Shown piece by piece: positions 6,170-33,806 of a stretch of 64,000 nucleotides of DNA. The position numbers and the translations under genes are program-made. This DNA comes from a phage. How positions within the stretch are numbered: position 1 is the first letter of the stretch; the number at the start of each line of letters is the position of its first letter. The notes beneath the pieces are model-generated. The model was not told the origin of the DNA. It made no database searches and saw only the letters and a program-made list of their open reading frames with translations. The DNA lies in the sequence record PZ445437.1; one strand, written 5' to 3'.

Positions 6170-7129
6170 TCACTTCCACTGCATTTCGCATGCTAATTGA
6201 ATGAAAAGATAAGCTAGATGCAATTCAGTATTAGCTGCAATACCATGATACTGATTATTTTCGCCGACAATTTCGTACATACGAATAATACTCTGTGGAG
6301 TTACACGTGAATAGATTTCTTCGGCAAGTTTACCTACGAACCACGAATAATCGGCTGCATATTTTGGTGCTAAAGCTCTGAGTTGTTTAACATCTTTATT
6401 TTTGAGAGACTCAAGAACATCATCAATAGCACCACGATCATTAGTAACCAGTGATAAAATACCAGCATCCAAAACACCTTTAGATGAATAACTATCGAGC
6501 TCGCCAATAGTTTTACGAAAATCAGGAAAATTCTTTTTAACCAAAGCTGCTACAACTTTCATATCAGCTATAGCAATACCTTCATGTTTACAGATTTCGG
6601 TCAACCGACGAATCATCTGCTTCATCATTTCAATTTTATCTTCATCGGTCGGTTGACCGAATGTGATAACTCGGCAGCGTGACTGAAGCGGTTTAATAAT
6701 ACCATCAATATTGTTAGCAGTAATAATAATACTACAGTTTGAGCTGTAAGCTTCCATAAAGGAACGAAGATGTCGCTGAGATTCTGCTAAACCTGAACGG
6801 TCAAATTCATCAATAACGATTACTTTTTGACGACCATCAAATGAAGCGGCGCTGGCAAAATTAGTCAAAGGACCACGAACGAAATCAATTTTACAATCTG
6901 ACCCATTCACAAACATCATATCAGCATTTACATCATGACACAATGCTTTTGCTACAGTTGTTTTACCTGTTCCTGGAGAAGGAGAATGAAGAATAATATG
7001 TGGAATCTTACCTTTACTTGTAATAGATTTAAAGGTTTCTTTATCAAAGGCGGGAAGAATACATTCATCGATAGTAGATGGACGATATTTCTGTTCAAGA
7101 ATGTGTTCTTTTTCATTTACGGTAATCAT
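6170..7129 (-). CDS. 44: Clamp loader ATPase subunit
   Basis: AAA+ Walker A GTGKT and SRC motif; ATG at 7129 gives 319 aa as in T4 (ORF-track start 7144 is an upstream TTG). Confidence 0.9.
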
Positions 7130-7163
7130 AATTTCCTCATTCAAGTTTTAGTGTAAATTATAA

Positions 7164-7177
7164 AGGGCCGAAGCCCT
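7164..7177 (-). terminator. Intrinsic terminator-like hairpin after gene 45
   Basis: AGGGC-UUCG-GCCCU hairpin 3 nt after gene 45 stop. Confidence 0.45.
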
Positions 7178-7180
7178 CTA

Positions 7181-7867
7181 TTAAAAATCGTGGGTAGAAT
7201 CAGCTTCAAGAGCTACTACATAATTCGCATGTTCACCTTCAAATTTAGCAGCGCCTTGTTTACCTTTTGCCCAGAGCAGAAGTTTATAATTTCCTGGTTG
7301 CATTTTCATATTTGCCATATTGATAATGAAATTAAATGTGTTTTCACCATCATAATCACCAAGAGTCAAAGAATATTTAACACGGGTCAGAGCAGAATCT
7401 TCTACTTTATTAAAACCGTTAATTACGATTTTACCTTCTTTTACTGTGATAGCAATTGTATCAATTTGCAGACCACGAGATACACGCAACAGTTGTTGAA
7501 GGTCTTCAGCTTTAATTTCAGTAACAACAGATGCTACCGGGAATGGAATTGGTTTATTAGGAGCAACTACTGTGCTCGGATCGGCTGCTGGCCAAAAAAT
7601 TGTTGAGCGGGCATCAGCAATTTTAATATTTCCATCTTCTGACTGGGAAATTTCTGCATCATCATTAACTAGAGACAGAATGCCGAGAAAACCGTTCAAA
7701 TCGTAAATTGCTACATCAAAATCAATAACGTCAGAAATATTTGCTTCCGCGTAAGTTGTACCATTAACTGCGCGAGTCATAATAAATTGACCGGATTTAA
7801 GCATAATGCCAGAGTTAATAGTAGCGAAATTTTTAAGCAGAGCAGTAGTATCTTTAGACAGTTTCAT
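7181..7867 (-). CDS. 45: Sliding clamp
   Basis: 228 aa, T4 gp45 length and position. Confidence 0.93.
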   Translation of the reverse strand: MKLSKDTTALLKNFATINSGIMLKSGQFIMTRAVNGTTYAEANISDVIDFDVAIYDLNGFLGILSLVNDDAEISQSEDGNIKIADARSTIFWPAADPSTVVAPNKPIPFPVASVVTEIKAEDLQQLLRVSRGLQIDTIAITVKEGKIVINGFNKVEDSALTRVKYSLTLGDYDGENTFNFIINMANMKMQPGNYKLLLWAKGKQGAAKFEGEHANYVVALEADSTHDF

Positions 7868-7922
7868 GTAATTTCCTTCAATTCAAATGGGATTTAATTT
7901 TATAACTAATTAAATAAAGCAA

Positions 7923-8312
7923 TTAACGATTAAAATCAGCTGCGATTGTTTCGGCAACAATTTGAGCAGCAACAATCAGACGTTCATCTGCATTACCGCA
8001 ATAATCATCTTCAAGGCGTTCACCGCATGAAGTCATAATAAATTTAGCACCGGCGTTTAGGGATTCTGTAGTATGTTTGCGCATTAGTTCAATCCATTTA
8101 TTACTTACTTCACGATCGATAGCTTCATAATACGCATGACGAGCAGGTGCAGATTTAATTTTGTTCTGAATAACTTCCATCGCGTTATCAGAAAGAGACA
8201 AAACCCACGCTCGACGAATTTTATTTTGGTTTTGTGGATTTGATTCAGAACGCACATGTTTTGGCTGAATATCTTTTACATCAACAGTATAATTCACAGT
8301 AATTTTAGTCAT
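7923..8312 (-). CDS. rpbA: RNA polymerase-binding protein RpbA
   Basis: 129 aa, T4 RpbA length and position between 45 and 46. Confidence 0.7.
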
Positions 8313-30982: not shown

Positions 30983-31171
30983 TTAGTCCTTAGTTAAATT
31001 TTCTAAATATGTTTCTAAATCATTTTCAGCTTTATCGATAGATTTTACTAATTCGTAATATGTTTCGGCATCTCCATATTCAGAAGATATTTCAAAAGAC
31101 AAATCCTTTTCTAAACTAATAATTTCACCAACTAAAAATAATATTTCGTTCTTTTGTTCGCGAGTAATCAT
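30983..31171 (-). CDS. Hypothetical protein (62 aa)
   Basis: ORF; paralogous to the next ORF. Confidence 0.4.
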   Translation of the reverse strand: MITREQKNEILFLVGEIISLEKDLSFEISSEYGDAETYYELVKSIDKAENDLETYLENLTKD

Positions 31172-31353
31172 AAGGAATTTATATAATTAATAAGTTCTTG
31201 TTCTTTATTATCGAATTCTTTAGAAAGTTCTTCGTACTCGTTTGCACTAAAAGGACCGCATTCATTACAAACTTTTTCCAATTCGCTATTTTTATCCATA
31301 ACTTCGTGGATAAGAGAAAAGAGTTTGTCTTTTTGTTCTTTGCTTAGGCTCAT
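31168..31353 (-). CDS. Hypothetical protein (61 aa), tandem paralogue
   Basis: Shares ..EQK..LF.L..E... pattern with 30983..31171. Confidence 0.4.
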   Translation of the reverse strand: MSLSKEQKDKLFSLIHEVMDKNSELEKVCNECGPFSANEYEELSKEFDNKEQELINYINSL

Positions 31354-31523
31354 ATATTAATTTCCAGAAGTTTTAAAATAATTCGCTTTTGCTTAAATAT
31401 TTCCATAGTTAAATGATCAGTATCTTTTTGACCAATTCCAATGGCAAAACCTTTATTAGCAGCGAGTTCAATTAAATTATCAAGTTCACGTAACACTTCG
31501 TACTGTAACTCAGAACTATTCAT
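31350..31523 (-). CDS. Hypothetical protein (57 aa)
   Basis: Hand-translated MNSSELQYEVLRELDNLIEL...; ATGA/TGA overlaps with both neighbours. Confidence 0.4.
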   Translation of the reverse strand: MNSSELQYEVLRELDNLIELAANKGFAIGIGQKDTDHLTMEIFKQKRIILKLLEINI

Positions 31524-31732
31524 TTCGGTTTACCTTCTTTAACGAAATCTGGATAAGGATAAAATCCCGAATAAAATCCTTCACCTTTATGATTGACGCA
31601 TCCTTTATTAGAACAATAGCACCAATAATCGAAATCACAAGCCATTTCATCGTTGCATAAAGCAAAAACAACCGGCCACTTACACTTTTCACAATGGGCA
31701 TTTTTAAGAATACTAGTTTGGCTCATAACCAT
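31520..31732 (-). CDS. Cys-rich small protein (70 aa)
   Basis: 10 Cys in 70 aa (CEKCKW...CNDEMACDFDYWCYCSNKGC), likely zinc-binding. Confidence 0.45.
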   Translation of the reverse strand: MVMSQTSILKNAHCEKCKWPVVFALCNDEMACDFDYWCYCSNKGCVNHKGEGFYSGFYPYPDFVKEGKPK

Positions 31733-31950
31733 GTCACCTTTAAGCAGTATTCTTCTACATGCTGTTTACGACCTTTCTTATCAATAAAGGTATATTCAAC
31801 GAATGTTCCAATGTAGTCTTTATCTACATCATGTGGACTATTAATTGGACATTTAGTACGGCAAATGCGTTCCCATTGACGAATAATTACTGCCTTATTC
31901 TTTGGGTCATACGGATGTGGATAATGTATATTCATAATAACGGTTCCCAA
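31723..31950 (-). CDS. Hypothetical protein (75 aa)
   Basis: ORF. Confidence 0.4.
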   Translation of the reverse strand: MGTVIMNIHYPHPYDPKNKAVIIRQWERICRTKCPINSPHDVDKDYIGTFVEYTFIDKKGRKQHVEEYCLKVTWL

Positions 31951-32399
31951 TCAACAATCACAATTTCTAATTTAGAGGAATATGTATCTAAAATCCCCTC
32001 AATAATATCCCAGTTCCCTTTACCTATGCCTGCACCAATCCTAGGCATATAGATTGTAGGTTTAATCAGTTTATTTTCACCAAACTCATTTAATTCTAAC
32101 ATACAATTCATTAAAGCGGAATACTCAAAATTTGGCCCCGGTTGAAATTGAGTATAAAGATTGAAGCAGTAAGCTTTATGAGTCCTAAAGTATTTTTCAT
32201 AGACTGAGTAAGAACCGAGTTTAGTTACATCGCCCCATTCTGTCTGTAATTTATCAGCTTCCAAAATTTTAGGGAAAGCTTTGGTTAATTGACCCGCTAC
32301 GCCTGAACCCATAGTATGAAAACAATTGCATCCATGCGCAATATTTTTACCTTCAGCGAAAAGGGCGACAATATCGCCCTTGATATATTTTACAATCAT
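31932..32399 (-). CDS. Macro-domain-like protein (155 aa)
   Basis: Motif HGCNCFHTMGSGVAG resembles the macro-domain N..x5..G[GS]GV ADP-ribose-binding signature. Confidence 0.45.
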   Translation of the reverse strand: MIVKYIKGDIVALFAEGKNIAHGCNCFHTMGSGVAGQLTKAFPKILEADKLQTEWGDVTKLGSYSVYEKYFRTHKAYCFNLYTQFQPGPNFEYSALMNCMLELNEFGENKLIKPTIYMPRIGAGIGKGNWDIIEGILDTYSSKLEIVIVDWEPLL

Positions 32400-32743
32400 C
32401 TAGTACTCAATCCTCGATTATAAGAATCTACCAAACAGTCAACCATTGAATGACAAGCGGCTTTATCTTTCTCCTCCGCAACTGAGCATTCTAAGGTATT
32501 CCACTTTTTAGCATATCGTTTTAATAATGTATCGTTTTTGTATCTGCTTGATTTATCTCTTTCTCCGTCTTTATATGCATATATTAATTTCTGTGCAAAT
32601 TCAACTTGGCATGCTTTATTTTTCCCACAATAATCTGCCGCAGTGCGGTTTACATATTCTCTAATTTCAGTATATGATGTATCTGCTGATGCAGAAGCAG
32701 AAAATGAAATTAATCCTATACATAAAACCAAAATTTTAGTCAT
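32396..32743 (-). CDS. Secreted small protein (115 aa)
   Basis: Cleavable signal peptide; 4 Cys. Confidence 0.45.
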   Translation of the reverse strand: MTKILVLCIGLISFSASASADTSYTEIREYVNRTAADYCGKNKACQVEFAQKLIYAYKDGERDKSSRYKNDTLLKRYAKKWNTLECSVAEEKDKAACHSMVDCLVDSYNRGLSTR

Positions 32744-33281
32744 TTACTATTTCCAAAAGTTTATTATTTTTAAGGTAATTAGCCTTTTCTAGGACTTCAG
32801 AAGCATATTTAGAACCTGCTTTAACATTCCATCCCGAATTATAAGAGGATATTGCTTTTCTTATATCGCCCTTATGTATATTTAACCAATAAGAAAGTTC
32901 AATGTACGCCCAGGAAGCTGAATTGGATCGTTTATTCAACATTCTTTTTATTTCAGCATCAGTCATATTATAACCAAGTTCCTTAACTCTCGCTCGCATA
33001 GTAGGCAAATAATTTTGGAACATTCCATAAGCGTGATGCTTTGGTTTAGATTTTAAATTAACTCCGCCAGAGCTTTCTTGCCATAAAATGGCTGCCATTA
33101 TATGACCTAATCCGCTCTTGTGGATATTTTTATGTGTTTTATATTTTCCATCCTTAGAAAATTGTTCCCCGAATTGATACGCGTAACGCATGTTATCGAG
33201 TTGGACATTACTGAAAGTATGCTCGGAGCTATGTGCCATCATTGAAATGGCCAATAGACCAGCGAGTAGTGCTTTTCTCAT
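32736..33281 (-). CDS. Secreted lytic-transglycosylase-like protein (181 aa)
   Basis: Signal peptide; ILWQESSGG motif resembling the SLT catalytic Glu-Ser. Confidence 0.45.
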   Translation of the reverse strand: MRKALLAGLLAISMMAHSSEHTFSNVQLDNMRYAYQFGEQFSKDGKYKTHKNIHKSGLGHIMAAILWQESSGGVNLKSKPKHHAYGMFQNYLPTMRARVKELGYNMTDAEIKRMLNKRSNSASWAYIELSYWLNIHKGDIRKAISSYNSGWNVKAGSKYASEVLEKANYLKNNKLLEIVND

Positions 33282-33777: not shown

Positions 33778-33806
33778 ATTATACCACAGTCAAGAGGAAA
33801 AGTAAA
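33778..33806 (-). promoter_or_regulatory. T4 early-class promoter for regB
   Basis: Minus strand TTTACT..17 nt..TATAAT then GGAGAA RBS. Confidence 0.5.

Follow-up and report, generated by a model that had tools for sequence, protein, structure and literature searches.

On what does a small phage protein with an apparent ADP-ribose-binding signature act? The question is raised by a minus-strand ORF of 155 aa with an ATG start, located at positions 31932..32399 of a 64,000-nt stretch of phage DNA (PZ445437.1), the whole of which is referred to here as the window. An initial annotation had singled out this ORF for the motif HGCNCFHTMGSGVAG, called its product macro-domain-like, and suggested that it could bind or remove the ADP-ribose adducts made by the T4-type phage enzymes Alt, ModA and ModB, or counter host ADP-ribosylating defence toxins; its identity with T4 tk.4 went unnoticed there. 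Both the ORF and the quoted motif are present in the window, the latter at residues 22-36 in the ORF list.

Identity and genomic setting of the ORF

The predicted protein (17.5 kDa, a single macrodomain) is identical to Tk.4 of phage T4 (NP_049723.1) at 155 of 155 residues, and the two genes differ by six nucleotides, all in third codon positions and all synonymous, a pattern that we take to be typical of a genuine protein under purifying selection. Its counterpart in the T4 reference genome (NC_000866) is tk.4 (T4p110), with the order regB, vs.1, vs, tk.4, tk.3 kept. Judged by these comparisons, the ORF is phage T4 tk.4 as carried by a phage closely related to T4, and it shares with the T4 gene, now also called adfM (10.1101/2025.11.20.689424), the flanking genes vs and tk.3. 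Most of what can be said about the gene at this level was already known, including its identity, its A1pp or macro annotation (since at least 2006) and its anti-DarTG2 role (2025). The A1pp match of tk.4 orthologues was reported in the 2006 comparison of T4-like genomes (PMC1524935), and NP_049723.1 is annotated as 'phosphatase; Tk.4; contains A1pp phosphatase motif'. The modestly new point of the present analysis is that Tk.4, as aligned here, belongs to the Gln-type (SCO6735-like) and not to the Lys-type (DarG-like) branch of these proteins.

The gene lies in a tightly packed same-strand run extending from regB, vs.1, vs and tk.4 through to tk. The order of thymidine kinase, small ORFs, tk.4, vs, vs.1 and regB is that of phage T4, although two extra small ORFs lie between tk.2 and tk.3 in the window's phage compared with T4. 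The upstream gene vs (valyl-tRNA synthetase modifier; 32396..32743, minus strand) was assigned by PHROG 1256 and by synteny with T4 and KAW1E185, and is considered here as context, outside the function of the macrodomain. The stop codon of vs (TGA) and the ATG of tk.4 share nucleotides (ATGA), which suggests that the two genes belong to the same transcription unit. A putative Shine-Dalgarno-like GAGGA, identified by reading of the sequence, is found at 32411..32415 on the minus strand, 11 nt upstream of the tk.4 ATG and within the 3' end of vs. Downstream, the TGA stop of tk.4 overlaps in the same manner (ATGA) the start of the tk.3 homologue (31723..31935, minus strand; 70 aa from the ATG at 31935), which was recognised by PHROG 2008 and T4 synteny and likewise serves as context only. 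A scan for promoters was uninformative, with 23 sigma-70-like sites against 21.8 expected by chance, and a hairpin in the mRNA where the tk.4 coding sequence begins was not significant (fold z-score -1.36). The region of the GC-rich hairpin at tk.4 codons 7-13 folds no better than shuffled sequence.

The 2.8 kb around tk.4 are 98-99% identical to many Tequatrovirus genomes, including those of KAW1E185, RB27, RB18 and T2. Over a 24-kb stretch, identity with several T4-like phages was 96-97%, with no near-perfect match.

Macrodomain assignment and class

Profile searches, searches against structures and a predicted fold were used to examine the macrodomain-like call. The protein scored 27.7 bits against the Pfam Macro profile PF01661 (E=2.9e-6; gathering cut-off 22 bits), with 112 of the 118 profile positions covered, and it matched PHROG 335 at E=1.3e-65. 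A single-sequence search of the PDB returned BT1257 (1.3e-9), yeast Poa1p, SCO6735, DarG and TARG1. With a profile of 49 homologues the PDB matches ranged from 1e-11 to 5e-17, with BT1257 at 4.9e-17, and coronavirus Mac1 was found at 2e-3. The AlphaFold2 model, built on the homologue alignment, has a mean pLDDT of 95.1 and a pTM of 0.90, with six strands and five helices. Foldseek comparison of this model with the PDB placed TARG1 (E=4.8e-10), Poa1p, BT1257 and DarG in ranks 1-19, the top matches having a probability of 1.0 and a query-normalised TM of about 0.73-0.82; a total of 152 PDB chains were matched at E<=0.001, and the best 50 of these 152 are all macrodomains or designs built on one. 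Pfam, the PDB sequence search and the predicted fold thus agree with the initial call, and by profile and model the ORF product is a genuine macrodomain. The same searches put it in the ALC1-like class (TARG1, DarG, SCO6735 and Poa1p); its nearest neighbours, as ranked by sequence and modelled fold, are not of the MacroD, PARG or macroH2A types.

Within this class DarG profiles recognise the protein at a distance, with E=1.3e-9 for the PADLOC DarG profile and E=2.5e-7 for the macro part of the NCBIfam DarG model NF048014. Membership in DarG itself was considered and rejected, in that NF048014 gave 30.3 bits where its cut-off is 250, with only the macro half (positions 2-146 of 338) matched, and a single DarT2 query detected no DarT gene beside tk.4, the flanking genes being vs and tk.3. 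A functional analogy with DarG is kept.

Pocket residues and the lysine-to-glutamine position

Residues 22-36 (HGCNCFHTMGSGVAG; 32292..32336, minus strand) comprise the motif H-G-C-N-C, with His22 and Asn25, followed by Gly-rich loop 1 (G31-S-G33), and would form the region that binds the distal ribose and phosphate of ADP-ribose. G23, N25, C26 and G33 are invariant among the 49 homologues, and H22 and C24 are conserved in at least 90% of them. For a wider comparison, a MAFFT alignment was made of Tk.4 homologues, SCO6735, BT1257, TARG1, two DarGs and PhiKZ gp104. There N25 aligns with N22 of DarG, N23 of PhiKZ AdfM (gp104) and N27 of SCO6735, and H22 aligns with H24 of SCO6735 as well as, in the PDB search alignment, with the His of HSCNC in Poa1p. 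Residues 119-130 (PRIGAGIGKGNW; 32010..32045, minus strand) contain Gly-rich loop 2 (G122-A-G124-I-G126), the predicted diphosphate-binding loop, in which all 49 homologues share P119, I121, G122 and G124, while G128 and W130 are each at least 90% conserved. This loop aligns with MPRIGCGLDRLQW of TARG1 and PPLGAGNGGLPW of DarG, with G126 at the position of TARG1 Asp125. The expectation that a macro-domain profile would match and that the key Gly and Asn positions would align was borne out, N25 and both Gly-rich loops aligning with TARG1, DarG and SCO6735.

The position of the catalytic lysine is occupied by a different residue. Residues 80-84 (N-L-Y-T-Q; 32148..32162, minus strand) stand at the end of beta-strand 75-84 of the model, and the column of Gln84 holds the catalytic Lys that ends the central strand in TARG1 (K84), DarG (K80) and PhiKZ AdfM (K78), and Gln85 in SCO6735. 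A first hhalign comparison with PhiKZ gp104 had placed K78 two residues off Q84 in a low-confidence stretch; the later alignments agree on the Q84 column, as found by hmmsearch (TARG1 and BT1257), MAFFT and hhalign (SCO6735 and T. aquaticus DarG). All 49 aligned sequences carry N80-x-Y82-T83-Q84. Across 258 homologues from two database searches, Q84 is present in 257, the lone exception being a gap, and N25, N80, Y82, T83 and Q84 are each kept in 247-257; His occupies position 22 in 246 and Asn position 25 in 257. Q84 is also found at 80 of 80 bacterial loci, for the selection of which the motif was not used. As aligned, the active site of Tk.4 is not DarG-like.

Comparison with characterised macrodomains

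The closest precedent is SCO6735 of Streptomyces coelicolor (PDB 5E3B), which has Gln85 at the Lys position and cleaves thymidine-linked ADP-ribose efficiently; BT1257 (PDB 2FG1) belongs to the same clade. The Q85A and Q85E variants of SCO6735 are inactive, and in the mechanism proposed for it a water is activated while the distal ribose is held by the Gln amide (PMC9411070), which in simulation contacts the ring oxygen of that ribose. The gene has been described as DNA-damage-inducible, and SCO6735 and TARG1 both act on protein ADP-ribose as well (PMC9411070). SCO6735 and BT1257, the best sequence matches in the PDB, resemble Tk.4 in being stand-alone proteins, about 150-180 aa long, that lack a DarT partner, carry an H-x-C-N motif and have Gln at the catalytic-Lys position. 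They differ from it in overall sequence (21-29% identity) and in having N-M-I-G-Q where Tk.4 has N-L-Y-T-Q. K34, K89 and the longer mobile loop of SCO6735 are missing in Tk.4, in which the loop following Q84 is 4-5 residues shorter and has no Lys. SCO6735 is moreover a bacterial gene product and basic (pI 9.7), whereas Tk.4 is encoded by a phage counter-defence gene and is acidic (pI 5.9). Comparison of the Tk.4 family by hhalign gave 98.5% probability for SCO6735 (2.7e-15), 97.9% for DarG (5e-13) and 96.7% for PhiKZ gp104 (4.6e-10), by which the family appears slightly closer to SCO6735 than to either of the others.

The DarG macrodomain (T. aquaticus 5M31/5M3E; M. tuberculosis 5M3I) has the fold, the class and the opponent, DarT2, in common with Tk.4. 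The two share an N-x-x-T frame ahead of the catalytic residue, and N22 of DarG corresponds to N25, but Lys80 of DarG is replaced by Gln84 and the C-terminal DarT-binding domain of DarG is absent from Tk.4.

A biochemically characterised analogue of Tk.4 exists in PhiKZ. Its gp104, also named AdfM in a 2026 Cell Reports paper in which T4 tk.4 is unmentioned, strips off, in vitro, the ADP-ribose that DarT2 has attached to a TNTC oligonucleotide, with activity reduced by N23A, and is imported into the phage nucleus (PMC13309987). PhiKZ AdfM is, like Tk.4, a phage-encoded stand-alone macrodomain countering DarTG2; unlike Tk.4 it keeps the DarG-type lysine (K78), and it matches DarG at 9.4e-25. Orthology of the two was rejected, BLASTP aligning only 23 residues (E=0.005). 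The two AdfM proteins would represent separate recruitments from different ALC1-like subclades, and a naming problem arises in that T4 Tk.4 and PhiKZ gp104, although not orthologous, carry the same name.

Human TARG1 (OARD1; PDB 4J5R) is the best Foldseek match to Tk.4 (TM 0.75-0.82) and of about the same size; its catalytic dyad K84/D125 aligns with Q84/G126. TARG1 is reported to remove thymidine-ADPr as well (PMC8501950). Poa1p, a yeast ADP-ribose-1''-phosphate phosphatase (PDB 6LFQ-6LFU), has the fold and the H-x-C-N-C motif in common with Tk.4 and is the source of its 'A1pp phosphatase' label; the substrate of Poa1p is a small molecule. It lacks Gln at the Q84 position, where it apparently has Ser or Thr in a region aligned with low confidence. 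H22 of Tk.4 aligns with the HSCNC His of Poa1p and T29 with the Ser of its NGS motif; these would be H23 and S30, two of the three Poa1p residues (H23, S30 and F152) mutated in deposited structures, if a three-residue offset in the PDB numbering is assumed, and the C-terminal Phe was unreliably aligned.

Reported and proposed function against DarTG2

A HIDEN-SEQ preprint of November 2025 describes the screening of a T4 transposon library on DarTG2-expressing E. coli. Only tk.4 emerged by transposon sequencing as a significant hit when the host carried DarTG2, and a clean tk.4 knockout sensitised T4 to DarTG2, the gene being renamed adfM for 'anti-DarT factor Macrodomain' (10.1101/2025.11.20.689424). 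Enzymatic removal of ADP-ribose from DNA was there proposed as something that 'seems likely', and the passages of the preprint that were consulted make no mention of complementation or of a catalytic mutant. Our literature searches for a biochemical or phosphatase assay of Tk.4 returned none. T4 lacking adfA and adfN was still DarTG2-resistant (PMC11825919). The reported conditional essentiality of T4 tk.4 on the DarTG2 host lends substance to one of the roles raised by the initial annotation, that against host ADP-ribosylating defence toxins, and since the protein in the window is identical to T4 Tk.4, this requirement should transfer to the window's phage. In T5, the DarTG2-sensitive control of the preprint, family profiles found no credible macrodomain ORF in positions 1-112000, the record beyond that point being an annotated terminal repeat identical to the left one; the same profiles found exactly one in the window.

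Based on these observations, we propose that tk.4/adfM encodes a stand-alone ALC1-like macrodomain that likely guards phage DNA from DarTG2 by an SCO6735-like hydrolysis of dT-ADPr, a reading to which we assign a probability of roughly 0.78. [quoted passage not shown] The protein would be an orphan antitoxin that lacks the toxin-binding domain of DarG, and its chemistry would resemble that of SCO6735 rather than DarG, the near-invariant Q84 replacing the catalytic lysine and, by the SCO6735 precedent, holding the distal ribose in position while an activated water attacks. Hydrolase activity of Tk.4 itself, using Q84 and N25, is thus predicted from the alignments and by analogy. A lytic phage would in this way carry its own orphan version of an enzyme of the bacterial antitoxin type that undoes a DNA-modifying immune attack, as has already been published for tk.4, and thymidine de-ADP-ribosylation without a lysine, of which SCO6735 is the one demonstrated case to date, would possibly be the common solution in phages.

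Two features of the sequence sit less comfortably with a hydrolase. Tk.4 lacks the Lys of the known thymidine-ADPr hydrolases other than SCO6735, and the DNA-positioning lysines of SCO6735 have no Tk.4 equivalents, K34 corresponding to S32 and K89 being absent. The low pI of Tk.4 was also considered as an argument against a DNA substrate and was rejected, as the DNA-active PhiKZ AdfM is more acidic (5.05 vs 5.9).

Protection by Tk.4 need not be purely enzymatic, because the catalytically dead variants SCO6735 Q85A, DarG K80A and TARG1 K84A remain inhibitors of DarT in vitro, that of SCO6735 being the strongest (PMC9411070). It is therefore conceivable that Tk.4 protects mainly as a stoichiometric inhibitor, binding DarT2 or shielding ADP-ribosylated DNA, an account with which the absence of the canonical catalytic Lys would also agree. 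However, the pocket residues N25, N80, Y82, T83 and Q84 are kept throughout the family at the frequencies given above, and Tk.4 has no counterpart of the C-terminal domain with which DarG binds DarT. In addition, the conserved Q84 at the 80 bacterial loci, where a single DarT2 query detected no DarT2 within 5 kb, favours a catalytic pocket over a toxin-specific interface. Binding of DarT2 is plausible as a contribution and unlikely to be the whole story.

The RefSeq and PHROG labels, which give phosphatase and an A1pp motif, would fit a Tk.4 that is mainly a small-molecule enzyme of the Poa1p kind, that is, an ADP-ribose-1''-phosphate phosphatase or O-acetyl-ADP-ribose deacetylase clearing NAD-derived metabolites, with DarTG2 resistance as a side effect. 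Poa1p is indeed among the best sequence and fold matches and shares H-x-C-N-C, and two of the bacterial homologues adjoin NAD-salvage genes. The 'phosphatase' label is nevertheless a transfer of a domain name and not the result of an assay, and the Gln motif fits the DNA-active SCO6735 rather than Poa1p, in which the low-confidence alignment shows Ser or Thr. The tRNA repair pathway of T4 Pnkp/Rnl1 is not known to generate Appr>p. As the sole recorded phenotype is specific for DarTG2, we regard a primary role in small-molecule metabolism as very doubtful.

A further possibility is that the targets are marks made by the phage itself. T4 encodes three ADP-ribosyltransferases, alongside which an eraser in the same genome would make sense, and Tk.4 could erase or read the ADP-ribosylation or RNAylation marks that Alt, ModA and ModB leave on host proteins. 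These enzymes modify arginine, however, and Arg-ADPr is reversed by enzymes of the ARH/DraG type, while ALC1-like macrodomains cleave Asp/Glu-ester and thymidine-linked ADP-ribose. Because the marks are arginine-linked and no macrodomain is known to cleave this linkage, their erasure by Tk.4 is unlikely, and the suggestion to this effect in the initial annotation found no support. The activity of SCO6735 and TARG1 on protein ADP-ribose speaks for such a role; against it, tk.4 is reported, in the passages of the preprint that were consulted, only as a DarTG2-specific hit (10.1101/2025.11.20.689424), and the occurrence of homologues in many phages and bacteria may also count against it. Overall, we consider the chance that Tk.4 serves this purpose to be close to negligible.

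Distribution of the family

At E<=1e-30, a profile search of 1.84 billion representatives yielded 1,202 clusters (50% identity); with the limit at E<=1e-10 there were 8,841. Matches were found by tblastn in 2,750 phage records, including phages of Escherichia, Klebsiella, Salmonella, Pseudomonas, Vibrio, Acinetobacter and Aeromonas, and homologues of Tk.4 are present in bacterial genome assemblies of many phyla. The search for DarT2 at the 80 bacterial loci, which covered 5 kb around each, used a single P. aeruginosa DarT2 as the tblastn query and is of limited sensitivity; the same query gave no credible match in the window, the best having E=4.5. The bacterial homologues in the examined assemblies thus appear typically to be orphans of the SCO6735-like kind and not halves of toxin-antitoxin pairs.

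These results are compatible with a broader proposal, to which we give even odds, that T4-type AdfM is no DarG-like enzyme and represents a large and distinct Gln-type family with a near-invariant signature (H-G-C-N-C ... N-x-Y-T-Q), recruited independently of the Lys-type PhiKZ AdfM. Its members would carry out lysine-independent, water-activating, SCO6735-like removal of thymidine-linked, and perhaps other, ADP-ribose, and those in bacteria may be general genome-protecting erasers instead of antitoxins. A Pfam scan of 141 naively called flanking ORFs at the bacterial loci, based on crude ORF calling, found heterogeneous neighbours and no recurrent partner gene; the domains encountered among these neighbours included semialdehyde dehydrogenase (nine times), NADAR (three times) and NAD-salvage domains (twice).

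Gene content around the macrodomain gene tk.4

The genes regB, vs.1, vs and tk.4, a tk.3 homologue, several small ORFs and tk lie in a run on the same strand. Next to tk, at the tk.1 and tk.2 positions, are ORFs of 62 aa (30983-31171, minus strand; E=1.7e-22) and 61 aa (31168-31353, minus strand; E=4.4e-25), both matching a single PHROG family, phrog_653; the two appear to have arisen by tandem duplication. Compared with T4, in which the order is tk.1, tk.2, tk.3, tk.4, the interval between tk.2 and the tk.3 homologue holds two more small ORFs (31350-31523 and 31520-31732, minus strand), as it does in the T4-like phage KAW1E185. One of these encodes a 57-aa protein (phrog_3452) and the other a Cys-rich protein of 70 aa (phrog_2306), whose pattern, CEKC...C...C...CYC...C, is that of a possibly zinc-binding protein.

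Upstream of tk.4, both vs (32396-32743, minus strand; MTKILVLCIGLISFSASASA...) and vs.1 (32736-33281, minus strand; MRKALLAGLLAISMMAHS...) begin with a hydrophobic, signal-peptide-like N-terminus, an unexpected feature given the label 'valyl-tRNA synthetase modifier'. Weak matches to lytic-transglycosylase/endolysin PHROGs were obtained for vs.1. In the HIDEN-SEQ preprint (10.1101/2025.11.20.689424), vs is reported to show the strongest depletion of all T4 genes in minimal medium.

Candidate regulatory elements

A sigma-70-like site directly upstream of regB (33778-33806, minus strand), comprising TTTACT, a 17-nt spacer and TATAAT with an upstream TG, could drive a transcription unit from regB to tk. 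The promoter scan returned a total of sigma-70-like sites in the region equal to chance expectation, and this site is therefore regarded simply as a consensus match. Codons 7-13 of tk.4 contain a GC-rich inverted repeat with arms of 8-9 bp (32361-32381, both strands; AAGGGCGAT-ATT-GTCGCCCTT on the mRNA strand), which the terminator scan picked up on the strand opposite to tk.4. The 91-nt region around the repeat did not fold significantly better than shuffled sequences (z=-1.36).

ADP-ribose-related genes in other genomes

Family profiles recovered no credible macrodomain ORF from phage T5 (positions 1-112000). At the T5 locus (L084), T5.102 (6447-7265) and T5.105 (7588-8094) are both annotated as Sir2 (NAD-dependent deacetylase / ADP-ribosylase); T5 therefore carries other NAD/ADP-ribose-related genes and is DarTG2-sensitive nonetheless.

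Among 141 crudely called ORFs flanking the bacterial Tk.4 homologues (loci L002-L081), three contained a NADAR domain and two contained NAPRTase/NAMPT NAD-salvage domains. Where a macrodomain adjoins NADAR, erasers of thymidine-ADPr and of guanine-ADPr would be brought together, a combination that T4 has in adfM and adfN at separate loci.

The name AdfM was applied independently to T4 Tk.4 (10.1101/2025.11.20.689424) and PhiKZ gp104 (PMC13309987). These proteins are only remote relatives, with a BLASTP alignment of just 23 residues, T4 Tk.4 being a Gln-type macrodomain whereas PhiKZ gp104 is Lys-type and DarG-like.
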